Source: Marsupella aquatica
Taxonomy: Eukaryota > Plantae > Marchantiophyta
DNA: 64,000 nt
Direction: 5' to 3'
Assembly (NCBI GenBank): GCA_973895155.1
Contig: OZ316893.1
Location: 744,860 to 808,859, forward strand
A program made the position numbers and the translations under genes. Below the pieces are notes generated by a model that was not told the DNA's origin, made no database searches, and saw nothing but the letters and a program-made list of their open reading frames with translations. Positions 18,244-63,329 of this stretch are shown in pieces. Numbering within the stretch: position 1 is the first letter of the stretch; each line of letters starts with the position of its first letter.

Positions 18244-18984
18244 TTATATAATGATGATTCGAACGAGAGATGATCGAATTTGTTCTGAATTGCAACAACT
18301 TCCACTGTCTTGACGGCTAAATCATTCAAAACACAAGAAATCCCCGGGAAAATCCCCACTCACTCTCGCCCAGGAGACGTTGTAAGCTTTCAGTAGTAGG
18401 AGAGAAGAAAGCTGTGATCATGTTTACCCGTATCTCACGAGGCATAGTCTGAGTCTGCGACTCTGGCATGGAGGTTGCACCTACATTTCTGTGGTTCTTG
18501 CTGAAGCTGTGGATCCCCTCTCTGCAGGACAGTCCGTCCATCTGCTTAAGCACTATAATATATCAATACCATGCCCTCCGTCTCTGCTATCTGCGGTTCA
18601 GCTCAGCTGAGAGGAAAAAAGCAGCAGCATGCAGGAACCATAGCATCCTGACTTTCTTTGTGCAGATAAGAATCTGCCCACATAATCAATATTCTGAGGA
18701 GAAAGGTATAACTTTATTCCTTTGCTAGGGAGCTATTGCAGTAGGTGGGCCGGAACCAAATACTTCTGAGCTCTTATCGCGAAAGATCAGTGACGTTACC
18801 GTGATGCCTTCCTGCCCCACCTCACTACCGGCCTAGAATCTACACCAATGCAGATCTCGTCGATAGGTCAGCTTACATTAGTAGCCTGAGCTCATTGAAC
18901 ATGGCGATGAAACCTTCCCAATTTCTTTTTTGTCGTAAACGGAAATGGGAAGAACACTTAGTAGTCTCTCCCACCTTCCCAGGT

Positions 18985-21812
18985 CGTCTCTCCCACTCTC
19001 ATCCCCCTGAGCATAGACGTCTGCGTCGCTCTTGTCGTTTGGCCCAGGCTGGTGAATATCGTCGGGCTGTCCAGGCCCTTTCTCCCACCACACCAGCACC
19101 CCCTGGCGAGGTCACCTCGTCGGCCCTTCAGGATCTCCATCCGCAGTCCCATGATCAGCTCCCTTTGTTCTTAGAGGATTTTGAGCCTGAGGAGGATCTT
19201 CAGTTTAGTAGGGACCACTTCACCTATGCCTTCCTCCATGCCCCGCGTTGCGCTGCTGGTGGCCCCTCCGGCTATGTCTTTGAGCATTTTCGTGATTTAT
19301 TTCCCCCTGAGGATCCTCAGTTTGGTTTTCCAGTTTTCTTCTCCTTTTGCCAGTGTATTGCAACCGGTCGTTTGCCTCCTCCCGTCTCTCGGCTCTTGAG
19401 TGCTTCTCGTTTATTGGCCATGGCTAAGTCTTCACCGGGTGTTCAGCCAATTGCTATTGGGGAGGTTTTTCTTCGCCTTGTGTCTCGCACACTTTCCTCA
19501 CAGTTTCGCTCTGCACTATCGGATCATCTCTCTCCACATTAGTTTGCAGTGGGCGTTCCTGGCGGTTGTGAGACAGTTATTGCGGGTATTCGAGCTACCT
19601 TGGACCTCCACCCTGATTGGGTTGTCCTCCAAGTTGATGTCTCTAACGCTTTTAATACAGTTTCTCGGGCAGCCATTTTTCGTGCTTTGAGGGCGGCGGA
19701 TCCAGATATCCAGTCCCTGATCCCCTTTGTTCGTTGTTTTTATGGACTCGAGGCCCCACTCTTCTGTAGTCATCACTCCTCTACAGGAGTGTATACCACT
19801 CTTTCTTCTGCAGAAGGTACACGTCAGGGTGACCCTTTGGGTGGGCCTCTTTTTGCCATTGCCCATTTTTCAGCTTTACGGGAAGCCACCATGGCCCACC
19901 CCCAGTGTATCTTCCCCTCCCTTTCAGATGACACCCACATCATTGGTCCTCCTGCCGCGGTTACTTCTGCCCTCGCCACTCTTTCCACCCATTTGATGGG
20001 TCTCGGTTTACGAGTTCAACCTGCGAAGAGTCGTGCATGGAGTCCAGCTGGTTTACCCTCTGATCTTGCGCTTCCCCCAGGGTTCTTACGTCCAGTCGAT
20101 GGTCTTCGGGTCCTTGGCTCCCCAGTCGGTTTCGTCTCCTTTTGCTCATCTTTCATCGCTGACTCTCTACAGGCTGCCTTAGCCCCTACTCCTATGCTCC
20201 CTAAGTTAGCAGATTCTCAGGCAGCATTTGGGATGTTGTTGAGGTGCATCCACCCTCGTGCGTCTTATCTGGCTAGGACGCATCCCCCTACCGAGGATCT
20301 TTGTCTCCACCTTCGAGCATTTGATGTATCCATTCGTGAGACTCTGGCCTCTCTTTTAGGGCCGGGAACGTTGCTCTCATCTCCGTGGCTTCATCGACAA
20401 CTCGGTCTTCCTATTTCGCAGGGTGGTTTTGGGCTTACTTCCATTGAGAGCCTTGCACCTTTGGCCTTTTTGGGTGCGTGGGCCGCCTTCTCCTTGTTGG
20501 CCGATCGTTTCCTTATTGAGGATCGCCCTTTTTTACTTTCATCTCTCATGGAGGTAGAGGAGGGTTCCCTCCCGTTTCAGGTTCATTTGCGCGCAACACG
20601 GTCATCATTACCAGATCCCGTTCGTGCTGCGTTACCTTCTTTTCAGGAGTTTTTATCCTTGGATCCCATCCGTCTTCAGGCAGACCTCGCTGGGCGTATG
20701 CACGCTTTTACCCTTTCCAGCATCCTCTCCGAGGCACCTGACACGGACCGAGCTCGGATTCTTTCTTCCGGAGGGAAGGGCGCAGGAGGATGGCTTCAGG
20801 CCAATCCAGTCATTCCTCATTTGCGGATGTCTTCCATAGAGTTCTCCACAGCCATGCGTCTTCGTATGGGGCTGCCCCACCCACTTCTTGCAGGTTTACC
20901 TCCCTTCTTGCACTTGTGGGAAGCCTTGTGATGCCACAGGTGTCCATCTTCTTCGGTGCAGCTTGGGAGGTGAAACCATTATTGTTCATGATGTTGTGCG
21001 AAATGCAACCGCTCAGGTTCTCTCTGGCTCTTTGGTATGCGTGCGGCGGGAGATGGTACTCGAGTTACCTGGTCCTCCATCACAGCGGTTACGGGTGGAT
21101 CTTACCATGGTCCGTGAGGGTCAACGTACTTTGGCAGATGTAGTGGTGGCAAACCCATTGCGCCAAGACATCATTGCGACAGCGGCAACAACGGCAAGGG
21201 CAGCAGCGTCACGTGCGGCAACAACGAAGGAGGCCAAATATGCTGCACGAGCTTCATCCGACAGCTTCCTCCCCCTTGCTCTGGAGCTATTTGGGCGTCT
21301 TCATCCTCAGTTTGATGGGCTTCTTCGGCAAGCTGCTCGGGATGTTCATGGCCGATTGGGTCCCACCGGGCCCCCGCTTTCTGTTTTGACCACGCACTTT
21401 CGCCAACGCATTTCAGTCACCTTACAGCGTGCTCAAGCTCGGGCCATCTATCGTCGATCTCTTACAGTGGGTGCTAGTGTGCCTCCGCAGCGGCTAGCTC
21501 CCCTCGAGGATGTTCCAATCCCACTTGCTGATCTAGTTTTGACCCTTGATGTGGACCATTAGCTTTTTGCCACATTCGCTAGGAATGATGAGGACCTCGG
21601 TCCGGTTGGGTTAGTTTTAGTCTCTCTTTTTTGGTTTTTAGAGGTTCCTTATTGCTCATTTCTTACTTTTAGTTCCTCTTTCTTGGTGTTTAGTGGTTCC
21701 CTTTTGCTCACTTCTTTTACGCTTGGTTTTGTCCACTTGGACCCTCTTTTGTTTGTTCTTATGTACTCTGTTTGGTCCCTTTGTATATAAAAAGTGTGTG
21801 TATTTTTTCCCA
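18985..21812 (+). mobile_element. 5'-truncated non-LTR retrotransposon of CRE-like (early-branching, RT + C-terminal restriction-like endonuclease) type; single ORF broken by a stop (19540-19542) and a frameshift (~20900)
   Basis: RT motifs VQPIAIGEVFLRLV, QVDVSNAFNTVSR, GTRQGDPLG, SDDTHI and GLRVLGSPVG; LPISQGGFGL; zinc knuckle CTCG..DATGVHLLRC; RLE motifs HDVVR, RVDL..(x10)..ADV, KEAKY and FLPLALELFGRL; T-rich 3' UTR; TTCCCAGGT duplicated at 18976-18984 and 21807-21815. Confidence 0.9.
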
Positions 21813-22793: not shown

Positions 22794-23121
22794 CTCGGGG
22801 GGGTCACTATATGGAGGGTCATACATCGCGTGCAACGTTTTAGGGTTTGACCCCCCTAACTTTAAAGTGAAAAATATTTTTTTGCAAAGCCCTTTCTTTC
22901 TTAAAATTTTGTCATTTTTTATTAAAAAACCCCTAAAACTTTATAGAAAGTATTTTTTGCAATTAAATAGGCCTATGTGTTCTTTAAAGTCGACCAATCA
23001 ATAAAACATGCCCTATGTGTTCTTCCACCAAACTTTGGAAGTCTTCCGCCACACCCATTTAAATGGGCCTATACTTCGTCGCACGTGATGTGTCACTTCC
23101 GTGGAAGTGACCCCCCCCGAG
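22794..23121 (+). mobile_element. MITE, family A copy 1 (328 bp, 8-bp TSD ACAGTGCA)
   Basis: TIRs CTCGGGGGGGTCACT / AGTGACCCCCCCCGAG; ACAGTGCA at 22786-22793 and 23122-23129; internal similarity to copies at 55608 and 56081. Confidence 0.9.
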
Positions 23122-23847
23122 ACAGTGCACCCTTGCCAGATCAATCCATCTAGTTTATACTATAATAAAAAATCCAGTTCCTTTTCTCAGTGTTATGTTT
23201 GCAAAATCCAATTTGGGCTGAAAGAAATTGTGGTCATTCAAGTTATGAGGGTCTTCTCCAGCACCTTCAGATTAGCCAAAACACCCTTGCATGCTTGCTC
23301 TTGCCAGACAGCCGGTCATAGATCTTAAGTGTTTTAATGTTTACTAGCAGAGCATTATGGACCATATTAGCCTCTCAAAACTCAAGTTAATGGCCCTCAT
23401 TTTACTGGTCATTATGCTGTTTCTAGTACATCTAAATAACCAGAGTGCAAAATCACATTTGGATGAGGCAATTTCTCCTATATTTTCACTAAAATTTGTA
23501 AAACTATCTCATCGTAATAATGTTTGTTACCAGAGCATTTTGGACCATAATAGCCTGTCACAGCACGAGCTAAAGCTAATATTACCTACATTATTTGTAC
23601 TCAAACAAGGCCTAAAACATATAGCCAGTGGGTCCACTAACTAATTTGTGTTTAGAACCCTCCCAGTAACAACAGTTTGGTAATAGCAGGATCCACCAAA
23701 ACGACAACATCTTTGGAGCAATAACCACCCAGCAGAGATGATGATACTTAACATGACCACACAAATGACATCGAAACACAACACTTTGGCAACAACCACA
23801 ACATGTCCGAAGTGCATGACAACCCAGCCACAACTACAGTCAACAAT

Positions 23848-24235
23848 AGGGCGTCGCAAACCAGCTCATTCCCAGTGGTTTCTTGTGACTGAAATGTTAT
23901 GTGCTGGGTGACGGACCAAAATTTTTGGTTCCCACCAAAGGTGACTGTCAGTAACTTGGGCGGTCAAACACACGACCGCCCACACCAAAACTTGCTTTAC
24001 GCAATATGCGTTTGGGCCCTTCAAGAATTGTTCACGCCCTTTGGGATTGTCAGCGATCGACCATTCTAAAATTGTCGGCACCCAGATGACCCACGGGAGC
24101 TTGTTGAAACCCATCTCAAACCTGAAACCTTGCGGATTAAGTTGGCCTGAAAATTGGATTTTGGTCTAGGCCGTGGACATAGATTTCTTAGAACAGCAGA
24201 ACGGAAAAATCATGAGAGAACAAGTTTGAGGCCCT
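23848..24235. mobile_element. Non-autonomous MITE derivative of the Pangu-like Harbinger family
   Basis: Left end AAT|AGGGCGTCGCAAACCAG matches the TIR AGGGCGTCTCAAACTAG of the 57186-62375 element; right end AGTTTGAGGCCCT|TAT; 23915-23968 aligns with the reverse complement of subterminal 62257-62305. Confidence 0.7.
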
Positions 24236-29344: not shown

Positions 29345-30823
29345 TTAGCCCGTAGCTTCTAGCTGTTGTAGCTCTCTCTTCGAGTGCTCCATTATTCTCC
29401 TCTCAAGCTCTGGCCGGAAGTGTCGAATAAGACCTTGGACGGGCCAAGCAGCCGCATCACCAAGTGCACAGATTGTGTGTCCTTCAATCTGCTTAGTGAC
29501 TTCCTGTAGTACATCAATTTCCTCTAACTTCGCATTTCCGACCTTCAACCGCTCCATCATGTGCCAGAGCCACGGAGACCCTTCTCTGCAGGGCGTGCAC
29601 TGTCCACAACTTTCGTGCTTGTAGAAGTAAGACAGTCGAGCAATTGCATCCACAACATCAGTCGATTTGTCCATCACTATCACAGCTGCCGTCCCAAGAC
29701 CGGATTGCACCGCTTTCAAAGCATCAAAGTCCATAATAACATCATCACAGATGTTTTTGGGAAGAAGTGGTACGGAGGACCCACCAGGGATCACAGCCAG
29801 CAAATTGTCCCAACCCCCTCTCACTCCCCCGCAATGCCTGTCAATTAGCTCCCTTAAAGAGATGCTCATTTCCTCCTCCACTGTGCACGGCTTGTTCACG
29901 TGTCCTGACACGCAAAAGAGCTTCGTTCCCGCATTATTCTTGCGCCCAAAGCTGGCAAACCATTCCGGGCCTCTCCGCAAAATCGTTGGAGAAACAGCAA
30001 TAGTCTCAACGTTGGTCACTGTCGTCGGACAGCCATAAAGCCCAGCATTTGCTGGAAACGGAGGTTTCAGTCTAGGTTTCCCCTGTTTTCCTTCTAGACT
30101 CTCCAGAAGAGCGGTCTCCTCACCACAGATGTACGCACCAGCACCGTAGTGAATGTGCACATCAAAATCGTACCCTGAGCCACAAGCATTCTTCCCCAGA
30201 AAGCCGGCAGCGTAGGCCTCATGAAGAGCCTTCTGCAAATTGTTCCTCTCATTGACATACTCTCCACGGATATATATGTACGCCGCCTTCGCTCGCATTC
30301 CCACGCCGGCGATCAGGCAGCCCTCCAGCAGCTTGTGCGGATCATGCCTCATAATCTCGCGATCCTTGCAAGTGCCTGGCTCGCTCTCGTCCGCGTTGAC
30401 GACTAGATAAGATGGACGTCCATCAGAAACCTTAGGCATGAATGACCACTTCAACCCGGACGGAAAACCTGCGCCTCCTCGCCCCCTGAGACCGGACTTC
30501 TTCATCTCATTCACAATCCAATCTGTGCCTTTCTGGACCAGTTCCTTCGTTTGGTACCAGTCGCCCCGCTTCTGCGCCCCTTTCAGAAAAGGGTCATGAA
30601 TTCCATATACGTTGGTGAAGATCCGATCCGCATCGGAAAGCCCTCCATAATGAGTCTTCTCTGCGGGAGGCGGTGGCGGAGGAGGTGGAGGTCCTGGTGG
30701 TGGTGGGGAGGCAGCTGGAGCACTCAGATTTCTCTGTGCAACGAGACTTGAGGATGAGGAAGAAACTTGATACCTCTGCAAAGAAAAACCCGCTCTTCGA
30801 GCCGAGCTCTGAATGGCCCTCAT
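29345..30823 (-). CDS. NDUFV1: NADH dehydrogenase [ubiquinone] flavoprotein 1 (complex I 51-kDa subunit), mitochondrial; no introns in CDS
   Basis: Single open frame with [64 protein letters not shown] and HTICALGD (FMN/NADH and 4Fe-4S motifs); Arg/Ser-rich N-terminal presequence from ATG at 30823. Confidence 0.97.
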
Positions 30824-31347
30824 CTCCTTCCCTCCTCCGCAGCACAAGCACAGCCGAAATCAATTACGGCACCTCCACCTTCGTCGCACCCTAAATTCAC
30901 ACCAAATTCATCCACCCGTCAACAACACCAACAACAACAACAGAGAGAATCAGCTTGACCGAGCTTACAACCAAGCACCGATCGACACCTACCTTCCTGC
31001 CAGCCCTAAATTAACGACAAAATCCATTCACAGGTCCACAATAACAGCAACAGACATTATGAGCTCGACGAGACTCCACACAGCAGCACAACTATGTCCC
31101 ACACTCCTCTCCATGGTCGATCCATTTATGCCAAGCAATCTCGACAAATGCCACCTAAATCCGAAAGATCACATGAGCACCTAACCAGCTATCTACGCGC
31201 AAAACGAAAGCTCGATTTCTCGGAACAGCGTACCGGAGAGTGCCAATCAACCGAGAGAAGCAAGCAGCATCAAATTGTTGGCCGGGCACGCAGCTGCGTC
31301 GGGGTATATCTCCGGAGCTGGCCTCGTGGCGATTGTTCGGTCCTCGT

Positions 31348-34373: not shown

Positions 34374-37192
34374 ATGAGGAAGGGGCAAGTACGCGCCGAG
34401 AGGAGAATGAAAGAGGCCGAAAGTGAGCCACCATTGTCTTATGCAAATGAGCGAGATATCGTCGTCGATCGCAAGAGGCTGGGAGATCTGATTGAAACCG
34501 CCACGACCTCTCCTCTGCTCCACCTCGAAGATCGCGCTCTGTCTTCCATTAAATCTCTCGTGCGTGTCTCCGACAGCAACGTCCATGCAGCATTAGATTT
34601 ACTCCTGGATCGGCTCAAAAAGAACCATTCTCAGGTCCCTCGCTCACTTCTGATATGGGTTTGTCGAAATTCGCTCGGTCGTCCTTGATTTTTTAATTAG
34701 GGTCTTCTCCAAAGGCAAACAATCGCGATTTTGTGGCCGGCTGGCTCATCTGATGTGAATTGCAGACGCTTATGGAATTCAAGTTGTCGAGGTCTCGAGG
34801 GTTAAAAGATTTATTGAGGAATCAGTAACGCTCAATATCGGGCTCTTTCGCGTATAATTGCCTTCGAGCCTCTGATCAAGACCGTTCAACCCTATTTACG
34901 TTTAGCCCTGGGCAATTCAACGTAGCACGTACGGAGGAGAACTTCAAGAGTAACAGTGTATCTTTAGGTAGCTCAGGGCAATTCACGGTAGCAGACTTTG
35001 AAGATCACCAGTGACGCTTTGGGTTTGCCTGGAGCAATTCTCCGTACCTAATAAGGCTCAGAATTTGACGATCAGCAGAGAAGCACCCTAAGGATGTTTT
35101 ACCACCCATTCGCTTTCTTCAATTTGTGTAGTAGAAAATTGTGGGTAGCAAGTAGTTATTTTTGCAGAGGGCACATAAGGACTAGTGTCTGTAGATTCAC
35201 CAGGTGCTACACAATAGGGCACAGCCCTAAGGTGGGCATGGTATATTACCCAATGAAAAGGTGGAAAGTTGAGAGAGGTGGTGAAGTCTCATAGCATATA
35301 ATTGGTTTTGAAAACTGAGTCACTTGTTTACCCTGCAGGTGCGTTATTTGGCAGTGTTGCTGGTAGATGAACTATTCACTAGATCCAAGCTCTTCCGCTC
35401 GCTTTTGGTCCCTCAATTCGAGATCTTCATACTGCTCAGTGTCGGCTTCAGGGCAGATTATCCTCTCCCACCTCCAGATGATCGGGCCAAGTTGCTACGC
35501 AAGAAGAGCATAGAGCTGGTGGAGAAATGGAAGGACATGTTCGGACAGCATTACAAGCCGATTCGACTGGGCCATGATTACTTGAAGACCACTCTCAGGT
35601 TGGAGTTTCCTAACGCCAGAGAGGTCGCAACTTTGGCAAGTCAGCAGCGGAGGGACAGGGAGGAACGCACGCAAGAGCTGTTGAAGAGGAAATTCCGGTC
35701 GTTGATACAGGAATTTCCGAACTTTAAAGCTGATATCCAATCTACACTCGACGAAATTGACCAATGTCTTGAGATTCTCGTTCCTCCAGCTGCTGCCTCG
35801 GAAGATGCTGCAGAGGGCACTCCAATTGTTGCTGACATTGGGGACGAAGATGATGAATTTGAAACATACGGAGTGGAAAGCCTTCGACAACTTCGGGGGG
35901 TAGTAGAAGAGCAGGATGTATTACCACAGGAATCAACAGACAACTCAGCAGTTTTTGACACGCTTCGGGATCTTTACAAGCTTCTAACGACTCGACACAT
36001 CGTGAATTCTCAGGAGTGGTTAACAACGCTGATGAGAGTAGATCCTGAAGAAGACAGGCACTCCAGAGACTCCTTTCTCAGGGACATAATTGATCTCCGA
36101 AACCACCTGCTGCAAGTTCGAGCCAAGTGCGAGGGGCTGGGCATTCAGAGAATTGAGGGGAGTGGTGCGGGAGATGCTGGGGAGGAATTCGACGACGAAG
36201 TTTGGGAACAGGGAGATCTATTGACCGACCTAGGAGTTGTTCCACAAAGTCCTCCAGTTGAGAGCAGTCGGTCTGCTGACGCCCCCAGCTCCGGCTATAC
36301 GACTACAGTGGAGAGTGAAGAAATCAAAAGCAATTCGGAGAAAATGGACCTAGTGGGTATCAAGCAAGATCTGCTGAAGGAAGCCCCGGTATTGCCATGG
36401 GGCTCATTCCTGGACACTTGGGGCAGTCAGAGTGCCGTCCCTGCCAACCCACGGGGGATGGAATATGAGAATCACTGGGGGAAGGTTGACTATGATGTCA
36501 TGATCCCTGCTGAGAAGATTGCGGAAATCAGCGTAAGGGCATCGTACTACAAAGCCCCAGAGGTTGAAATTCGCCCTTGTCGAGCTCCTCTGAGGAGTGG
36601 AGGGTTGTGCCAACGTAGAGATCTTCGAAAATGCCCACTTCATGGGCTTATACGAGCGCGAGACGAGGAAGGAAATATTATTCCTAAAGAAGTAAAGCAC
36701 GCACAGTCAGCAATTGGACCCCAGGCAGAAAATGCGAGACAGTTGACTGGAACTGGTGGTGACGAATCTGATGAAACTGGCATCCTTACAGGTCATCAAA
36801 GCTTAGACCCGGTCGAGCTAGCTGAGCAGGCGATAGGGAACGTTAGGAAGATGGACGAACAAGCCAAGGCACTAGCACGGAGACATAGAGCGAAAAGAAC
36901 TAGAGAGCACAACGAGGCCTGCTTAAGAGAAGCAGCTACTGCTCAAATTAGATTAGGAGAATTTGGTGAGGCTCCTAGTGGGGCTTTTGGTGAAGGGGGC
37001 AATGCTGACTCTCGTACAAAAAAGCCAAGAGGTGGGCTGACCGCTCTCTTGCGAAAGAAACCAACGGTGAAAGATAGGCTGGCTCGCAGGCTACTGAATG
37101 GGCGTGTCACGGATGCAACTGTTAGTCAGCTAGCCAGGGATCAAGATGCAGCTTACCGTGAATCTTTTCCCAATCAGTGGACAATGAAGTAG
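34374..37192 (+). CDS. UVSSA: UV-stimulated scaffold protein A homolog; exons approx. 34374-34634 and 35339-37192 (start could be ATG 34407)
   Basis: VHS-like N-terminus (KKNHSQ|VRYLAVLLVDELFTRSKLFR, PLPPP); DUF2043 region APVLPWG..LD.WG and ENHWG; C-terminal zinc finger CRAPL..GGLCQRRDLRKCPLHG.I..RD..G; in-frame GT-AG intron. Confidence 0.92.
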
Positions 37193-52700: not shown

Positions 52701-55607
52701 GTTGTTCTCTGTACTACTAGCATTCATTCAACAGATCCATCAGGACTAGGCATCTAAACAGATACAAGGTACAGTAACCCTCTGTTTCTTCTTCATAATT
52801 GATTGGGATAAGAATGAAAACCCCGCCCAAAATTTTCCACTGCTTTGAAGATCATTATAGAGCAGCGTAGAGTTCATCGCCTTGGCTCACAAGCTTACCA
52901 TCAATGAAATGCAAAGCTGGTCTGCAATCTTGCATGAATCGAACCGAACTCACCGTCCAACGCACACACAAAAAGATCGATGAATCAAACAGAGAATCCG
53001 TTCCGTATTCCTTCTTCATGACGAGGATCACTTCCGCGTCAGAATTCTTTGTACTCCCTCCATGAGACGTGGGAACTCTTGCTAGCCCTTTCCTTTGCTC
53101 TTGATCCCAATCTCTGTGCATAGCCCACCCTGGCTAGTTCGATACGTTTGCACCGGGTTCCGCAGCAAGGTGGGAGAGAGTATTGATCTGGCCCATGACG
53201 ACTATGGATTTATCTATCTTGCATCGATCCATCCAATCTACTCTTTCATGAAAATAAAAAGCAACGGAAGATGGCTCGTTACCCTTCACTTCGGTTTGAG
53301 CCTGGCATTATCGTTGGCCAATGACAAGCTGGCAGCTCATAGAATTCGAAGGGCTTCGAAGAGACGCCGAAAGTTAATTCATTTCTGCAGGCGATCTACA
53401 CAACATGGTTACTTTGATGAGCTTGCTCCGATGGATTCCATGGGCCATTCCAGAAATGAAGCTGCAGCAGTGCATCCGTTCTGTGTATTGTTCTCGGTCT
53501 CCCTACTCCTGTATCAACTTCCTCGTGAAGTCCAGTGGCACACAACACAGTAGGTTGCTACCACTTGGACTTATCGCAGATTTTCGTAGGATGAGCATCA
53601 CTTATCGCAAAAGGGTATTTCACTGTTCCAGTTGGTTCCTGCTCCAATTCTGTTGGACCTCCCCCTCTATTCTGTCAGGTCACTCTCCCAGCCCAGTCAC
53701 GTGAAGGCTCTGCTTTCCAGATAATTAATGATTTGTTTCAATACGCTTCACTCTATTTTTTTTAGCTTGGAAGTATTGCGGATAACTACATCCCATTCCA
53801 TGAAACAGACGACAGGAGGAGGAGGGCCCCAGCCCCGGTCCTGTTTCCTTTGGACAGAAAGTCATAAAGCTAAACGAATTCAGCTGAAATCTCCAGTTTG
53901 AAATCTTGCATTGGAGATGAAATCACACTGCCAACGAAAGAAAAAAATGTCAAACCGACAAGATTTAGAAGGGAGGACAACCAAAAATGGGGAGAAACAA
54001 GAGAGAAACACACGAAGATCAAAGAGCCAGAGAGTCCCTGACAATGGCAAAAGCAGTAAAGCCCTACTCAACGCTTCACTGCGAAGATTGGTAAAGCTCA
54101 TGAGTAAAGTGTACACGTGACGAAGAGGAATTTGTCGACACGAAAACCAGGTGGACATGATTATCAATACTAGAGATCTCTACTGTAGATCGGAGTGCTT
54201 CAACAAAGTGCCTGGTCAAGTCAAGCAACAGGGTTCCCAGGTCATGCTTGGTCAAGGCATGCAACAGAATTCCCAGCCCATGAGTTCAGCTCCTGCAGGT
54301 TTCAACAACATTATGAGATTGAAGGAGAGGGTCCATTTACATCTTAAGAAAAATCAATTAAAGTGAATCTGAAGCCTGGATGGACTGAGCTTGTAAACCA
54401 TACAATTCAATTGGACCATGACATCCTTTAGGGGAGTTGGAGTATGGGATAGTACTTACAAAAAGAACTCAACTCATTCGGTGAGTCAGTTTCCATGATC
54501 TCTATGTTTGTTTTACTGGTTGCCAGAGTAGTTGCTCGTATTTTAATGCTATTGGGACCCATCTAAAATAAATCACTTTTGCAATTGATCTGTTGTGTCA
54601 TTTGTTGGGGAAATATTGCACAGCGTAACATCAAATAGAACCAGCATAACAAGAAATTGATTGACACTGCCACAAAGATAAGTGATTCACCCTGTGTGGA
54701 CTACTTACACAACTGCAAGAAGAGTCACTATGTACAAACCAGTAGATCTGTTGTAGCCTGAATAGCTCACAAGCTGCTTTGTGACCATCCTCTTCTCTCC
54801 TTTGGGTATACCCCCTCTCTAGTAGTATAATCCGGGTCTAACCCAAGAAACCCTTAACCATGGTCAGTCTGCCCCCTAGTTACCCTCTCCAGGCACTAGA
54901 GTTAAGTACCAACAATATTTTGAGACAATTCAAAATGATGGAACATTATGCCAATTTTAAGCACATTGAGGCCCAAAGGTTGTCCATGTGCCAATCCCAC
55001 CAGTCTAAGTTAGTGAACTAAGAAAAGAAAAATTGAACTACTGGAATATCTTGTAAATTGCACATTTGTATTAAGAATAAATTATTTCTAGTGTCGATTT
55101 TGCTCAAATGATAAACACCATGCTATAAAGTTCATTGACAGTGTGACCGTACTAGTCTAGGTCTTGGATAGAGCTCCTCTGAAATGGTCCTTCTGGGTCT
55201 CATGGCCTGATGTTTTTGCTATTAGGATTTACTCTAAGGTCTAGAGTAAGTTACCACTTTACAGCAATTAGGGCTATTTAACCTTAGTCGCAGACTAGGT
55301 TAGGTTAGTCATGTTGTGCACACACTATACCCAGGCGGTGTTTGCTAGGATAGGAGAAAGTTCTCGGTGACAATATTTGTGCATTGGATGGTCCATGGGC
55401 TTGCCGTTGCAATTGTTGTCTATGCTCAACACGTGCATCCTAGCGTCCTTGGTGCCTTTATGTTCCTTAAGACAACATAGCAAAATTTTACAAGAGAAAG
55501 GTGTGAGCATAAATGCAAGGAGCCCCAAATTGGATTTCAAATAGAAGAGGTGGAGGGGCAAAATATTTGGCAAAAATTATACTAAGTAAATAGACAAGCA
55601 ATTCACT

Positions 55608-55893
55608 CTCGGGGGTCTCACTATATGGAGACCTCCCCATCACCTGCAACATTTTTAGGCCTTGGACCCCATAAAATGTAAGAAAAATAAATTATTTGTT
55701 AACCCCTATAAAGTTGGAATCTAAAATTTTGATTAATTAAAAATACCCTAATGTTCTTATAAGTTTCAAAATTTGATTTAAAAGGCCCTATTGTTTTTCT
55801 CAGAAAATTCTTAAGTCTTCCCTTAGAATCAATAAAATGACCTTATCCTTCTCGCACGTGATGTGCCATTTTTGTGGAAGTGAAACCCTCAAA
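55608..55893 (+). mobile_element. MITE, family A copy 2 (286 bp, imperfect TSD AATTCACT/TATTCACT)
   Basis: Starts CTCGGGGGTCTCACTATATGGAG and ends TCGCACGTGATGTGCCATTTTTGTGGAAGTGAAACCCTCAAA, like copy 1; flanks match at 7 of 8 positions. Confidence 0.85.
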
Positions 55894-56080
55894 TATTCAC
55901 TTGGATGATGCATTAGATTCCCAAGGCTGTAAATCATGATTGGCCATGAATGAAAGTATCACTACATACTCGCTTATTAGTCAAATCTATCAATCAGTTG
56001 TTACTTTATCTAAGAGAGGTAGTCGAGATGTCGTGGCTAAACAAAATCTTGACAAAATAATTTATTCTTTGTAGTTGCAT

Positions 56081-56366
56081 CTCCGGGGTTTCACTTCCAC
56101 AAAAATGGCACATCACGTGCGACGAAGTATAGGGTCATTTTATTGGTTCAAAGGGAAGACTTAAGAATTTCTGAGAAAAACAATAGGGTCTTTTAAATCA
56201 AATTTTGAGACTTATAAGACCATTAGGGTCCTTATAACCAAAATTTTGGAATATTCCAACTTTGTAGGAGTTGAAAAATTAAAAAACAAATCTTACATTT
56301 TAGGGGGTCCGAGGCCTAAAAACATTGCAGGTGATGGGGAGACATCCATATAGTGAGATCCCCAAG
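56081..56366 (-). mobile_element. MITE, family A copy 3 (286 bp, perfect TSD AGTTGCAT), inverted relative to copy 2
   Basis: AGTTGCAT at 56073-56080 and 56367-56374; the reverse complement aligns end to end with 55608-55893. Confidence 0.9.
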
Positions 56367-57553
56367 AGTTGCATCTATCCCCAACAAATGTTGATTTTGT
56401 TAGACATTCACTTTTGGGTCTAGAGTTACTTTGTAAGGAATCCTTTTTCTGTTTTCATGGGACACCACACAAGAGTAAGCCTCACGGTTGACTTGCAGGC
56501 TGGAAAAACCCTGGTTTATGTTTTGTATTTCTTGTCATAATTCCTCCAACTACACAAGTGCCAATGGCACAATGCACATTGAACCCACCCAAGATGTTTA
56601 AGGCAGAACCTATAATCAGTTTATAAGTTGGAGCAGAACTCATTGTAGAAACTAGGGGCACTATGATTGACCCGATGATTGAGGCTGGATTGAGGTTGAG
56701 ATCAGTTGGTCACAAAGCCACCCCTGGCCACTTGAGCTGACGATCAGGCATGCAAAAGTTTACCCTTGCCTCCTCATTGTCTATCTGGCTGAAGGGAGGG
56801 AACTCCTAGAAATAAAAACAACAGGCACAACACCAAAGCTTCTTGCAAATCAGTTGCAGATGACATTATCCCAAACATTTCCCAGGAAAACAAGGTATAT
56901 GCTTCATTGAACCCTTCTCTGAAAATATTTAGTTCATGTCACAGTTTACACCCCTTGTGACACTTTTATGTCTGATATTCTTGTAGGGGTTCTGATAAAG
57001 TGTGATGTTGGATACTATACCGGACTGGATAAAAACAATATTAATGAACAAAGACTACCGGCATTTGAACCAGAAACTGTGTGCGGTCTGCAGGCTGTGA
57101 CATGAACCGCACATCACCAGCCATGCATTAGACCATTGCCGAAACTGAGAGTTTATGGTAATTGGATTTGTGAAGTGAAGCCAATAGGGGGTCTCAAACT
57201 AGGCGCCCGGAAATTTTTCCCGGACGGCCGTCCCCCAAAATTCCAGGCCAAGACGGTCACCAAAACCCAAGTCCCGGGTGAGCAAGACCAACGGGGTACT
57301 TGCTTTGAGAGGGCCCACCGCGGGTGTGCCGGACTAAAAAAACTCGCCCCCGCCCATATCTAGTTCGAAATCGTCACTGATGCTGCCATTTTTTACTCTC
57401 GTCACCATGAGACTTCCACGCACATTTTGACAAGGAGCCATGAATGTGCAGCCACTTTGTTGAAACATTTGAAAGTCTCAAACTTCCCCCCCCAGAACTT
57501 GACGCAGAATTTTGGGATCCAAGTGAGAGGCTGGCCCTGTTATAGAGGATACC

Positions 57554-58903
57554 ATGGACCCTTGTGAGCATGACTCTGCACATGAATTTGGCAAAGCACA
57601 GCAAGTTGAGATTCAGAATTTGTTTGGACCAACTGACTTTGTGCAGGATTCTCAAGCAGCCGAAGCTATGGTTGTAGGTGGTGCATCCGGTGGAGCACAA
57701 GCTAGATCTGCACCTCATCCGACAACAAGCACTCTTGTTGAGAACAGAAAGTTGTCAAGGGATGACTTATCGAAGATAGTAGATTGGCTCGAAGATCCTA
57801 ACAACTATGCCATGCTTCATGGGTCGCGAGCTCGGCTAGCAGTTGGGGAGAAGCATCCCTCGAAGAAAACAGTGTTCAAACTGATGCTTGTGCTCCTGCA
57901 TTCTAACGGATTTGCCAAGTTTGTGATGACAGGAGAGAATCTGGGAAAGAGGTTTAACAGATACACATCCAAGTGGAAGGAGGCCCTGGCAATTAAAAGT
58001 GACTCTGGTGCTGGGCTAACCTTGGCTGAGCTGAGGGTGGGGATTACTCTAGAAGACAAACTCGAGAAGATTTGCCCACATTTTGAACGGATGAGTCAGC
58101 TTTATGGGGAGCGGGCTAATGTGGCACCTCCAGCATTGGCTCAATGTGGGATACCTGGCCAGCCTGAGCTCATTTGTGATCCAACATCTGATGATGAAGC
58201 ACAAGATTATGACAATGTTGGGCTGCAACAGGATGAATCTGAATTTCCTGTCGACGATGGAGCACCAACCCAGCAAGAAGACATTCCCCACACTGCTTCT
58301 GAAGTGAATGGTGGAACTCAAACTCATGCCCAACCCGCAGCGACTGAGCAAAACACTGCTAACACCGGCACACCAGGCAATGTCGAAGAGAAGTCGCAAT
58401 CTAGGCCTATTCCTACTCCACCTGGGAATGGGCAAAGGCGTGTTCCTAATAAGAGGGCTGCCCCACCTTCAACGCAGGCACAGTCTAGATCATCTATGGC
58501 CGACCTTTACCTAGACAAGATTGGTGACAAGTCTATGTACAGACGAGAGATGATTCAAACTAAGGACAAGTGGAGAACCCAAGAATTACTTGATAGGCGA
58601 GAGGCTAGAGAAGTAGCAGCAGCTCAGCAAGACAAGAAGGATCGAATACAAAGGAGGCATGAGGAGAAGAGGGCTCGGTTGGAGCACCAACACCAGGTAG
58701 ATTTGATCCATCACCAGCAGCACGCAGCGTTGCTTACAGAGCTCTTTAGGGGTAATCGATCTCAGGATGAAATGAAATCCCTCTTGAATCTTATTCCCCC
58801 TATTCCTTCCAATGTCAATGCTGGCCCTCCTCGCAGGGCTCGTCCACCCACTACTACTACACCACCTTATGACAACCAGCCAATCAACATTGACAACAAA
58901 TGA
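57554..58903 (+). CDS. Transposon accessory protein (ORF2; Myb/trihelix-like helical N-terminal domain, low-complexity middle, charged coiled-coil C-terminus)
   Basis: Intact 449-aa ORF inside the TIRs, convergent with the transposase; motif IVDWLEDPNNY...KRFNRY..KWKEA....DSGAGLT...LEKICPHFERMSQLYGERANVAP is typical of Harbinger-associated second proteins. Confidence 0.75.
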   Translation: MDPCEHDSAHEFGKAQQVEIQNLFGPTDFVQDSQAAEAMVVGGASGGAQARSAPHPTTSTLVENRKLSRDDLSKIVDWLEDPNNYAMLHGSRARLAVGEKHPSKKTVFKLMLVLLHSNGFAKFVMTGENLGKRFNRYTSKWKEALAIKSDSGAGLTLAELRVGITLEDKLEKICPHFERMSQLYGERANVAPPALAQCGIPGQPELICDPTSDDEAQDYDNVGLQQDESEFPVDDGAPTQQEDIPHTASEVNGGTQTHAQPAATEQNTANTGTPGNVEEKSQSRPIPTPPGNGQRRVPNKRAAPPSTQAQSRSSMADLYLDKIGDKSMYRREMIQTKDKWRTQELLDRREAREVAAAQQDKKDRIQRRHEEKRARLEHQHQVDLIHHQQHAALLTELFRGNRSQDEMKSLLNLIPPIPSNVNAGPPRRARPPTTTTPPYDNQPINIDNK

Positions 58904-59504
58904 CTATTAGGTTCTTTGAATGATCTATGTGTTTACAATGTAAATTTCAGCCTCGCAGACTATGGAATGCCAGGCTGGTTCTCAAAATAAAGCAATCTTT
59001 TTGTTTTGGAGATGAATACTGTCTTTCTGATTCTGAATTGTAGTCATCATATATGGCATTATATATTGCTTGTGCTTTCTTTGCATGCAATGTGCAATTG
59101 GCTCAAGGTCGGTATTATATCCGGAGGGTCCATCGACAACAGAATTTGTTGACGGCATGGATGGGAACTGTGATCTTGATTGTGATCAGTGCAATTAAGA
59201 ACCAGAGCCAAGTCTGGACACAAGTAAGTCGATGCCATCGACACAGTAACATGAAAAGGTCATGAATTAATACACAGAAGCCTGAGATTACAAAATTTTG
59301 GTCATTACAAAAAGGAGTCTCAAAACTCTCAATACTCTCATTGCATTCGACTTAGTTGCTTCTGAACTACTGCTACAACAATTGAATGGTGATACATAAT
59401 TCTATGCAACCCTAACTGAATATTTATCCTTCTTGTTCACTTGATGGACTCTGATACTGAACTCTCGTATATACTCCAACATTTCAAAGGCTTTCTAATA
59501 CCAG

Positions 59505-61056
59505 CTAGATTAAGGTAGTCGGTGCCTGAGCTTCCCGGTGCGAAAACCTCCCTGGTTGTCGATAGTGCTCCAAGGCTCCATCCATGACTCTTACAAGAAA
59601 TGCATTTCCAGCTTGTACCAAAGCACGTCGAGAAACTCTGCCTGGATCCCGATGCTGACCAGGATGTCCATTCACGCTAGGATCTGGATAAAAGTCCTCA
59701 TTTTAAAGTCACCATCTTGCTCCCTCTGTAGCGCTATATCCTCAGGTGTCCACGCATCATTCCTGTTAATCACATAGTTGTGCAATTTTGCACACAAACT
59801 GATCCACCGTACCATCCAAAGGTTGTCCTTTTTGGTGTTCAATTATTCGGACTTCCTTTAAGGAATGCCATCTACTCTTCAGAACACCAATACAGTGCTC
59901 ATTGGTTACCCTGCATTTGGTCACACACATATTGAAATCTTCTTTATCTGGTATCATGTTTGTCCTCTTGAATGCAGACACCATGTGTGGAAGGGCCTGA
60001 TAACCCGAATCACCTAAAATGTACTGGTCTGCTTCAAATAGTGAATTTCTTCTCACATCAGTCAAAAAGGGTAACAATGGGGACTTCTGCACACAAGGTA
60101 GATCAGAGCATGATCCAGGCATTCCTGCAAAAGAGCAGTAACATCCCAAAGTCAATAACAGAGCATACAAAGTTCTGGTGAATTCCTCAAAATAATTCAA
60201 ATGGATTATTATTACCTAAGAACAGAAATATAATCTTCCTGCGATGGTCACAGACCACTTGCACATTGATGGAATACCGACTCTTACGATCATAGTAACA
60301 CTCTCCAAGCAGGGCAGGGCGTTGTGACAGAGGGCAAAGGGATCCATCAATGAGAGCGATGCAGCCTCAAAATCCCAATCTTTCGAATGCCTCTAAACTC
60401 GCTTCCCGTTCCCTTCTGGTAGGCCATTCAATGTAGTCTTTCAAAACGCTCTCCAAAGCTAGAAAGCAACGTTTAGAGTAGTTTACAACTGAACCACAAC
60501 TCACACCCCAAGTGGGTATCATATGATTTAAGCATGCACCATTCCCATCGTGACCAAGCCGGTCCAAGCATACCGCTAATTGTGCCTCTATAGGTGCTTG
60601 CTCACAATTGGACTGATTCTGGAAGACTGGGTGTCCTTCAATGAGGGAAAGAAGGTGATAAAAAGAAGACTTGTCCATCCTAGTGAGCTGCCTAAACAAA
60701 GGATTGGCCAAGCAATGGAAGAATTGTTGTGGAAATTCTTTAGATTTAAGGTTGACATGACGATCAACAAAATAACAAGTATTGTACATCACAAAGTACA
60801 GCTCTAACAGGTCGGTTGGATTCTCATCAGAGTTGGACCACTCTTCTCCTTTCTGATCATCAGATGAGCTATCCAGATCCAAGTTGGACTCAATGTCAGT
60901 ACTGAAGTTGTCTCTGTCAAAGTTTGAGAATCGTTCTAGGTCAAGGTCCACACATCCAGTATCTTCAGAACTATCAGAACTCTGTACAGCAATGGCCAAT
61001 TCAAGGCGTTGCCTTACTTGTCTCAAGCCTCTCTGCCTTTCAGAAAATTGAGGCAT
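59505..61056 (-). pseudogene. Harbinger/HARBI1-type DDE transposase, disrupted (TGA at 60369-60367; intron approx. 60216-60125; frameshift near 59843)
   Basis: FRQLTRMDKSSFYHLLSLI, EAQLAVCLDRLG, GVSCGSV (HTH region); F*GCIALIDGS, YYDRKSRYSINVQVVCD, GMPGSCSD, ILGDSGY, FN..VTKCRVTNEHCIGVLKSRW and, after the shift, LCAKLHNY. The D-D-E triad is visible. Confidence 0.9.
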
Positions 61057-61239
61057 TTTCAAGCGCAAGAGCTGTCATCCAGTGATGAAGAAAGTCAGTG
61101 CATATATAGATGAAGCTATGAACACAATGCAACAATCGTCATGCATAGTCCTTCACAAGAATAAGTGCAAAACAAATGTATTTCTCATGTAATAACCAAG
61201 TACATTATTGTTGTCCAAAGCAAGTAGACTATTCTATCC

Positions 61240-61899
61240 CTATTCGAAGTCCTCTAAATCTGTATTCCTCAATTGCAGCACAAGGTCTGCGAGAATTTTC
61301 TTTGCACTCTGTTGTTTCCCGGGAGAGGACTTTGGTTTTATAGAGCTTTGAGTAGGTGTCCTTGGAATTCTAGCATCCACAAAAGTCAATCTTTTAATGT
61401 GCATCTCAAGACCTTTCACTTCAAGTGAGACTTGGAGCTTGGGCAATTGCTTGAGAATGTCATGGACTACTGTACATTGCTCATATTCAGGCAGAATGCT
61501 GAATTCAAGTGGAGTATATTTTAGAAGAATGCTAGCACAATTCCAAAGGAGAACCTTCACAGGCTGCACACCACCATGAATGGCATCAAACAGAACCAAT
61601 TGGAATCGGAAGGCAGGCTCTCCAGGTAGGTGATGCCCACATTTTGAGCCAAATTCCAGGGACTTGTTACATCGTTGACCATCATCGTCTCTGTGGGGGC
61701 AAGAAGAGTAAATAACTTTCGTCAGGTAGGGATTTCGGGTTGTGTAGTTCGCTGCCCAGACTAAAGACGGTGGGAAATGCATACTGATCCCTTCAGCCCT
61801 CTTCTCCTCCACATCTAATAGAGACATCCACTGAGCCATGGCCTCCTGGCAGACAAGCAAGCATTCAGGCATTTCCACATCCTGATTGCGATTGAACAT
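61240..61899 (-). CDS. Intact 219-aa ORF resembling RPA70 C-terminal (DBD-C) zinc-ribbon OB fold, carried inside the transposon
   Basis: IYSSCP-x8-CNKSL-x5-CGHH-x4-PAFRFQLVLFD-x8-VKVLLWNCASILLKYTPLEF parallels the RPA1-C pattern Y.ACP..CNKKV..C..C..YRY.L.L.I.D...V..F...A..LLG..A.E; ATG 61899, stop 61240; no introns. Confidence 0.65.
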   Translation of the reverse strand: MFNRNQDVEMPECLLVCQEAMAQWMSLLDVEEKRAEGISMHFPPSLVWAANYTTRNPYLTKVIYSSCPHRDDDGQRCNKSLEFGSKCGHHLPGEPAFRFQLVLFDAIHGGVQPVKVLLWNCASILLKYTPLEFSILPEYEQCTVVHDILKQLPKLQVSLEVKGLEMHIKRLTFVDARIPRTPTQSSIKPKSSPGKQQSAKKILADLVLQLRNTDLEDFE

Positions 61900-61977
61900 T
61901 GGCGAAGAGAGCGAGTAGTAATGACTGAGGCGACTTAAAAGGATAAGGACTTACAGGAAAAGCAAGAATGTTGAACG

Positions 61978-62140
61978 TCGATGGACACTCGCAAGCTGCA
62001 CAATCACATTCACAATGTCAAAGGAATTTCGCACACGCAAAGCCGCAGCGTCATTCACATTCCTCGATGGACGCCCTGCAAGCTGCACAATCACATTCAC
62101 AATGTCGAAGGAATTTTGCAAACACAAAGCCGCAGTGTCA
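61978..62140. repeat. ~87-bp tandem duplication in the right subterminal region of the transposon
   Basis: TCGATGGAC...GCAAGCTGCACAATCACATTCACAATGTC.AAGGAATTT.GCA.AC.CAAAGCCGCAG.GTCA occurs twice. Confidence 0.9.
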
Positions 62141-62771
62141 CAAGCAGCGTTGAACTGCGAGGCCGAACAAAGTGTAACCTAAACTCATCAAAATGTATCC
62201 TAAACGCCTCACGTAACCCAGCTGTAGTCAACTTCCGGTTGCTATAACGGTAAGATGACCGGCTGGGTTATTGACGGTCACCAATTTTGGGCACCAACTA
62301 TTTTGCGGTCAGAGTCCTCCCCGCGAATTCCCGGCAGCTGAAAAGTTCCGCGGGACACCTAGTTTGAGACGCCCTAATAGTATCAATGTCTTCTGTTTTG
62401 TAAACTTTTTTACATGCATCCTCGGAAACAATTGATCCCACATTTTGGAGATTTTGCTTGCAGTTCACTAGGTTTTTTCAAGGTCTTCACAAGCTTCACA
62501 CTGTCATTCAGGTCCCACTCTGAAGGTGAGGCATTACTTCAACAGCAGTTCAATGCAATGGGTGCACAGGGAGGCCTCCTATGAGAGCTAATGGGCATAG
62601 GGGTCAATGTGGAGTTACTAGTCTGGCCCAAGGTATTGAAAAGCACCTATTGTGATCAGATTGTTCATAGTAATGAGATCTTGAGGTGGGGCAGACCACC
62701 ATGGCAACAACTTAGGATATCAACTCAGGAAATTTTTACTGTCTGGGATATTAATGTACTCCGCAAAAGTC

Positions 62772-63329
62772 TGAAAATGTGCAATCCTCATGTGTAATGT
62801 TGGAAAGCTCAATGAAGGCAAATTATTGCATGCAACTCTATTTCTTGGTATGAGTCAATTTTTTTGCTCTTTAGATCCAATGATCCATCTCTAAGTTGGT
62901 AACTGTTGATTTGAAGACAGCCTGAATATTGTCTCCCCAAATGGTCCACTCGGGGGTCCACTTTAAACTTTTTATCCCCGCCTGAACGGGATCTGTGATA
63001 AAAAAAAGTTGACTAATCCAAGCCAAACGATTGTGTTAAGTGTCACGTGAAGATAACATTCTTCCACATAGGTAAACTTTTGGCCAGTTATCAACAAGTT
63101 GTGAAATTGTTCTTGATCAAGAAGTCTATGAGTCAAATAATTGTACTAGGCATTATGTAAGTTCAACATCCATCTTGCGGACCATCTTGTCTACTAAAAA
63201 GGTCCATTGGCCATTTACCCCTACTTGAAATGGTTCTGTGATGATTTTGCAGAGATGAACAGGTTTTGTTATCAAGTAAAGTAAGCCCCAAATTACCCAA
63301 AAATTTCACATGAGGATTGCACATTTTCA
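62772..63329. repeat. 23-bp perfect inverted repeat pair about 510 bp apart (possible old non-autonomous element)
   Basis: TGAAAATGTGCAATCCTCATGTG (62772-62794) and CACATGAGGATTGCACATTTTCA (63307-63329); no TSD seen. Confidence 0.6.

Follow-up and report, generated by a model that had tools for sequence, protein, structure and literature searches.

Can a cut-and-paste transposon carry, as a gene of its own, a protein that handles single-stranded DNA (ssDNA)? Transposons of this type gain copies only through the timing of host replication or through gap repair, steps thought to be left to the host. The question is raised by an element at positions 57186-62375 of a 64,000-nucleotide (nt) stretch of the liverwort Marsupella aquatica (assembly GCA_973895155.1, contig OZ316893.1, positions 744,860 to 808,859 of the forward strand), hereafter the window. 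Bounded by terminal inverted repeats (TIRs) and a duplicated AAT, the element holds a broken transposase gene, an accessory open reading frame (ORF2) and a third, open frame of 219 amino acids on the minus strand (ORF3, 61240-61899), whose product is predicted to resemble the C-terminal domain of RPA70. As a preliminary description of this DNA had reported, ORF3 is co-oriented with the transposase; a spacer of 183 nt (61057-61239) separates its stop codon from the transposase ATG. We consider it very probable that this is a multi-copy Pangu-type transposon with an RPA70C-like third gene beside its transposase. The fuller reading, in which the window holds a decayed copy of a three-gene Pangu-type family whose ORF3 likely binds ssDNA and aids copy gain, receives a probability of about 0.5.

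The third gene and its predicted fold

Taken alone, ORF3 has no Pfam match and no sequence match in the PDB. A comparison of an ORF3 profile with PDB sequences returned TRAPP31 only, which we judged a chance match. The AlphaFold model of ORF3 has a mean pLDDT of 87, and the first seven rows of its Foldseek comparison are all chains of RPA70 or of RPA complexes (E 1.5e-5 to 5.3e-5). VIA-align, applied to 48,161 chains, places RPA70C domains at the top (Z 12.8-12.9, rmsd 3.2-3.5, 135-140 aligned residues), among them those of U. maydis and human (Z 12.9, 135-137 aligned), with OB-C of Teb1 practically tied (Z 12.7); no generic OB fold scores above 8. The RPA-like OB fold first suspected from the sequence is thus borne out by the model; Pfam finds the corresponding domain, Rep_fac-A_C (PF08646), not in ORF3 but in two of the 57 members of its family, and for one of these the score passes the curated cut-off (E 3.8e-7). 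The identity to RPA70C structures, 15-18%, agrees with the initial view that the protein is too diverged from RPA1 to be a recent capture. A viral structure library gave no match at E <=0.001, the best Atlas score was 0.86, with recognition below threshold (a lead only), and co-folding of ORF3 as a homodimer, made without an alignment, gave a score (0.00) that speaks neither for nor against a dimer.

The predicted structure shares with RPA70 DNA-binding domain C (DBD-C; 1l1o_C, 4gnx_C, 8rk2_A) and with OB-C of Tetrahymena Teb1 (3u50_C) an OB fold combined with a zinc ribbon (Z 12.7-12.9, rmsd 3.1-3.5, 135-140 residues). ORF3 differs from these proteins by its CCCH ligands, the absence of N-terminal OB domains and a terminal helix on a long linker, and is 7-18% identical to them. 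The zinc ribbon of RPA70 has four cysteines. In ORF3, both the zinc ribbon (C67, C77, C87, H89) and the RFxLxLxD strand of the preliminary description were found. By eye, W119 may fall where RPA70C has a DNA-stacking aromatic, and the loop of a second such aromatic looks shortened. The structural match to RPA70C ends at about residue 177, and the terminal helix, which is set off by a disordered linker whose length varies, falls outside the range aligned to RPA70. ORF3 is therefore predicted to consist of a lone RPA70C-type OB/zinc domain (residues 21 to about 177), a low-complexity linker and a C-terminal amphipathic helix (predicted at 199-212), which many family members extend by a few acidic residues.

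None of 1,000 shuffles of the 1.3-kb stretch of ORF3 contained an open frame of at least 199 codons. The true start is probably Met21, at 61839, because most homologs begin there. ORF3 had been called intact; its frame is indeed open, but this copy carries changes of its own at conserved residues 54, 59 and 62. Upstream of the gene lies an 87-bp tandem duplication (61978-62140, about 90% identical), where other copies skip 43-69 nt.

An index-free homolog search with ORF3 yielded 63 cluster representatives; a word-indexed search found one of 76 and two of 6705 candidates. We looked up the sources of 21 clusters: 13 come from Logan, four from JGI/IMG and four are named, all four from liverworts (three from Riccia sorocarpa, one from Calypogeia fissa). 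In the 57-row family alignment, counting covering rows, the zinc ligands are kept at C67 in 50/52, C77 in 50/53, C87 in 50/54 and H89 in 49/54; F99 is present in 55/55, and W or F occupies position 119 in 50/53. This conservation of ligands, F99 and W/F119 suggests that the family is under protein-level selection. These rows are at 23-74% identity; in the comparison of ORF3 with P0001, identical residues number 121/155 in the OB core and 25/42 in linker and tail. Most full-length homologs are compact, with 200-260 amino acids and one domain. A tree of 46 of the 57 rows (11 short rows were dropped) contains deep lineages, at least two of them inside Riccia sorocarpa, as might be expected of a mobile, multi-lineage family; having no outgroup, the tree is silent on origin. 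Three homologs, P0045 and P0058 (both named Riccia sorocarpa) and P0060, have a common C-terminal extension that belongs to no known family and is unlike ORF2 and the transposase; it may reflect another element context or fused gene models.

Linkage to a Pangu-type transposon

Further copies were obtained from contigs of five public runs in three studies, some with flanks identical to those of the window. These contigs fall into several identity classes, and ORF3 is present at about 97% (96-98%), 90% and 84%. Those at 90% (run X1, record 6; run X2, record 15/4) bridge the 5' end of the transposase and the 3' end of ORF3. A sister at about 84% (X4, record 30/13, 2643 nt; X2, record 2, 1509 nt; X3, in two pieces) has transposase exons 2 and 1 followed by ORF3, with order and strand as in the window copy. 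In its alignment the transposase exons are 83-87% and ORF3 84-86% identical; at 80%, no alignment is obtained for the intron region (60086-60208) or for the greater part of the spacer (61056-61185), and in the sister contig 128 nt of the 183-nt spacer are replaced by 100 unalignable nt. Since ORF3 adjoins the transposase in diverged classes, and intron and spacer are less conserved than ORF3, the comparison indicates that ORF3 has long been kept by this family as a third gene and is not a one-off capture. The linkage covers this family to about 16% DNA divergence. Summed contig depth is similar over the three genes and exceeds that of the flanks, a weak hint that should not be read as a copy number.

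ORF3 has no ends of its own. No inverted repeat of at least 8 nt bounds it and no Helitron-like ends were seen; no ORF of RepHel size occurs among the nearby ORFs of at least 150 amino acids, and no CTRR-T site was found in the spacer, while upstream of ORF3 none is paired with a strong hairpin. We rejected the nested-element and Helitron readings of ORF3 because these ends are absent. The one-off capture or nested insertion that the preliminary description had named as its own counter-case is not what we observe. Locus scans for a confirmed relative gave 0/10 and 0/7 in viral contigs, 0/95 and 0/275 in metagenome contigs and 0/135 in prokaryote genomes. In C. fissa, the ORF3 homolog P0008 and the transposase P0074 come from equally long contigs (66,576,599 nt), which does not imply adjacency; as a hint, it is compatible with wider linkage.

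The borders first proposed, with TIRs of about 20 bp and an AAT target-site duplication, hold up well. The left TIR (57186-57205, plus strand) begins AGGG and is complementary at 18/20 bases to the right TIR (62356-62375, minus strand), and AAT stands immediately outside both (57183-57185 and 62376-62378). Moving the element ends by one base loses the duplication. The AAT target is read from this one insertion. With up to three mismatches allowed, the TIR pattern has three matches in the window against 0.14 expected, and none of 100 shuffles reached three. A third TIR-like end, at 23845-23865, is preceded by AAT and has three mismatches to the element TIR; a partner end was not found. One contig (runs X3 and X4) joins 57138 to 62508 and skips the element, by a junction that is not exact. 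It is possibly a paralogous empty site; if so, the element inserted into another repeat.

A DDE_Tnp_4 transposase with a D, D, E triad, short TIRs and a 3-bp duplication are features of the PHIS/Harbinger superfamily. The PIF/Harbinger label given earlier thus stands for the superfamily but not for canonical PIF/Harbinger, whose target is TWA (TAA/TTA), whereas the duplication here is AAT. The Pangu group, which corresponds to Repbase Harbinger2 (PMC12730594), is defined by ANT duplications and TIRs of 11-40 bp beginning AG or GG (PMC4482050). Both features recur in our element, with its AAT target and a 20-bp TIR starting AG. The two-ORF layout of most described Pangu families does not: there are three ORFs here and likewise in the sister contigs. 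Membership in PHISTA is contradicted by the 3-bp AAT in place of TA and by a third gene that is predicted to encode an OB fold and not TET/JBP. Judging from its ends and target, the element is a Pangu-type member of the Harbinger superfamily and not a canonical PIF/Harbinger.

The most similar described elements are those of the Pangu/Harbinger2 group, above all Pangu-2_MLP of Melampsora (Repbase Harbinger-3_MLP), which share the ANT duplication, TIRs within 11-40 bp starting AG, a DDE_Tnp_4 transposase and a second ORF without known motifs (PMC4482050, PMC12730594). By eye, the catalytic blocks of our transposase look closest to those of Pangu-2_MLP and differ from the core Pangu/Harbinger2 rows (Fig. 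S3 of PMC4482050). Unlike Pangu/Harbinger2, the element here has a third gene and a land-plant host: Table S3 of the same paper lists 34 Pangu families, with columns for two ORFs only and no land-plant host. A rust-fungus-like, ANT-target Harbinger lineage is thereby placed in land plants, beyond the hosts of the paper that defined the group (PMC4482050).

Possible roles of ORF3 and rival explanations

Extra genes are stably carried by other elements of the Harbinger superfamily, namely HarbingerS (SET) and TET-bearing PHISTA; their cargo, however, is a chromatin-modifying enzyme, and the PHISTA duplication is TA, whereas ORF3 encodes an OB/zinc-ribbon protein (PMC12730594). Transposon-borne and highly diverged RPA-like genes are found in plant Helitrons (PHRPA, known from monocots and dicots only; PMC4683698) and in HLE1/HLE2 (PMC11417382). 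Those carriers transpose by rolling circle, through an obvious ssDNA intermediate, whereas here the carrier is a TIR/DDE element with a single DBD-C-like domain. That RPA is a known cargo of plant Helitrons, as the preliminary description noted, is supported by the literature (PMC4683698; see also PMC6431247, PMC11417382 and PMC9033089). Kolobok lineages with accessory nucleases or a RecQ helicase likewise combine DDE transposons with genes of DNA metabolism, but they form a separate superfamily and carry enzymes instead of an ssDNA-binding fold (PMC9587614). We found no report of RPA in a Harbinger or Pangu element in the full-text literature, a search outside which lie Repbase Reports, Dfam, most subscription papers and the supplement of PMC12730594; the term RPA has no occurrence in PMC12730594, PMC5751038, PMC9587614, PMC13668399 and PMC13182070. 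The claim of an undescribed architecture therefore holds for the combination of RPA and Harbinger in the literature found, but not for three-gene Harbinger elements as such, of which HarbingerS and PHISTA are described examples (PMC12730594). The combination may already be catalogued in Repbase, Dfam or that supplement.

What could such a protein do? Copy gain of cut-and-paste elements has been tied to replication forks (PMC9033089). In the mechanism that we favor, transposase and ORF2 would excise and insert the element, as known Harbinger biology suggests, and ORF3 would coat the ssDNA that the excision gap or replication forks expose, its C-terminal helix recruiting a partner. The donor site would then be refilled from the sister chromatid, or the element would insert into unreplicated DNA, with a gain of copies in either case. 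For this ssDNA-helper role, the odds are close to balanced. An RPA-derived gene kept across at least 16% DNA divergence would offer a direct, deletable handle on the copy-gain step or on silencing tied to RPA. The case is also relevant to the role of the RPA genes of Helitrons, the same fold being present here without a rolling-circle intermediate.

A number of observations weigh against this reading. On the protein side, ORF3 has one OB domain in its 219 residues where the full RPA70 subunit has tandem OB domains, and its OB core has no net positive charge (16 K+R and 17 D+E). RPA70C by itself binds ssDNA weakly and also has a role in subunit assembly. On the side of linkage, the five-run sample may include the source of the window itself, and the 90% class and the 84% class each seem to represent a single locus sampled by several runs (near single-copy depth, shared indels). 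In the 84% sister, stretches of ORF3 (61661-61818) and of the transposase 5' region are also unaligned, which makes the contrast between coding and non-coding sequence modest. The co-occurrence of ORF3 and transposase, named at the outset as a check, holds in contigs down to about 84% identity, but one copy has lost most of ORF3 through a deletion of 61443-61966. Among the best-supported differences from other copies, 4/6 in ORF3 are non-synonymous, as decay would give, with 11/14 in ORF2 and 10/13 in the transposase; the variant tables hold the 40 best-supported sites, mostly private to the window copy. The three Riccia homologs with a C-terminal extension show there no likeness to ORF2 or transposase. 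Finally, described Pangu families have two ORFs, so that a third is not needed across the group.

The main functional rival is anti-silencing. ORF3 might mimic the assembly domain of RPA70 and, by titrating host RPA32/RPA14 or by associating with them, relax the transcriptional silencing of the element that is coupled to replication. The domain that has been kept is the RPA70 trimerisation core, followed by a conserved amphipathic helix, and the SET and TET third genes of the superfamily are chromatin modifiers (PMC12730594). In Arabidopsis, rpa2 mutants release transcriptional silencing (PMC2721414), and the CpG observed/expected ratio of the element, 0.33-0.5 compared with 0.75 in a host gene, implies methylation pressure. 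Yet the terminal helix is not aligned to that of RPA70, the structural match having stopped before it, and we think this role unlikely.

A second rival concerns scope: ORF3 could be a cargo gene that moves among bryophyte transposons in general and perhaps came from Helitrons; the Pangu-type family would then be only one of its carriers, joined to it late in the history of the ORF3 family. The great depth of that family, the two or more lineages within Riccia sorocarpa, the different extension of the Riccia members and the limited divergence over which linkage is seen would all fit. RPA genes recur on Helitrons (PMC11417382, PMC4683698, PMC6431247), and TET genes move between superfamilies, in rust fungi (PMC12730594). 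However, neither RepHel nor a Helitron end lies near ORF3, most full-length homologs share its compact single-domain layout, and the equally long C. fissa contigs are compatible with a wider association; we regard general cargo as doubtful. Far less probable still is passive capture, by which ORF3 would be a Pack-type host gene fragment or nested insertion without function for the element. Decay of the window copy and the ORF3 deletion in another would agree with it, but ORF3 recurs in all three identity classes, is complete from start to stop with zinc ligands conserved over 57 aligned proteins, lacks ends of its own and is remote from RPA70C in sequence.

The ssDNA-helper reading can be extended, tentatively, to a bryophyte-wide Pangu-type clade whose third transposition factor would be an ssDNA-binding protein derived from RPA70C; this protein would direct excision-gap repair or fork targeting in such a way that a nominally conservative element copies itself. 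This extension is somewhat improbable in our estimation; if true, a dedicated ssDNA-binding protein would be a first among DDE transposon systems.

Transposase, ORF2 and the rest of the window

The transposase gene (59505-61056, minus strand, 3' end approximate) matches DDE_Tnp_4 at E 2e-13, with catalytic residues D at 60348, D at 60011 and E at 59900, and a predicted GT-AG intron of 91 nt at 60125-60215, suggested by the sequence and by a frame change in tblastn. The DDE transposase of the preliminary description is thus present, but its lesions had been missed: the reading frame meets an in-frame TGA at 60367-60369, shifts near 59844 and changes at least once more near 59700. Contigs of other copies have sense codons at the TGA site and two extra bases at 59844, so that the family has members in better condition than the decayed copy in the window. 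With such lesions, the window copy cannot be autonomous. Among named transposases, those of C. fissa come nearest (55-59% over the query) and that of Puccinia sorghi is next (37%); exon 1 is 54-55% identical to the C. fissa transposases P0073 and P0074.

ORF2 (57554-58903, plus strand) is open, encodes 449 amino acids and converges on the minus-strand transposase, in line with the convergent accessory ORF originally described. It has no Pfam match. Its N-terminal helical domain is weakly Myb/SANT-like; a single-sequence model is too poor to judge its fold by (pLDDT 46, no fold match). Its best Atlas clusters, both unnamed, are from Basidiomycota (0.91) and Streptophyta (0.89), and Myb/SANT clusters score 0.79-0.82. 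The rust-like transposase blocks and the basidiomycete ORF2 cluster make a transfer of the element between fungus and bryophyte possible.

Plant-like genes elsewhere in the window encode the complex I 51-kDa subunit, UVSSA and a haemolysin-III-family protein; the first two (29348-30859 and 35312-37189) are single long ORFs with no apparent introns. A fragmented non-LTR-type reverse transcriptase element (RVT_1) occupies 18805-21559. To the left of the transposon, an element resembling a miniature inverted-repeat transposable element (MITE) spans 55605-56369, with inverted arms about 85% identical over 289 nt and related pieces at 23010-23116; thousands of contigs pile up over 55300-56500 in all four runs compared. 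To the right, 62772-63329 contains a pair of 30-nt inverted repeats, 93% complementary and 498 nt apart, which is probably a MITE.

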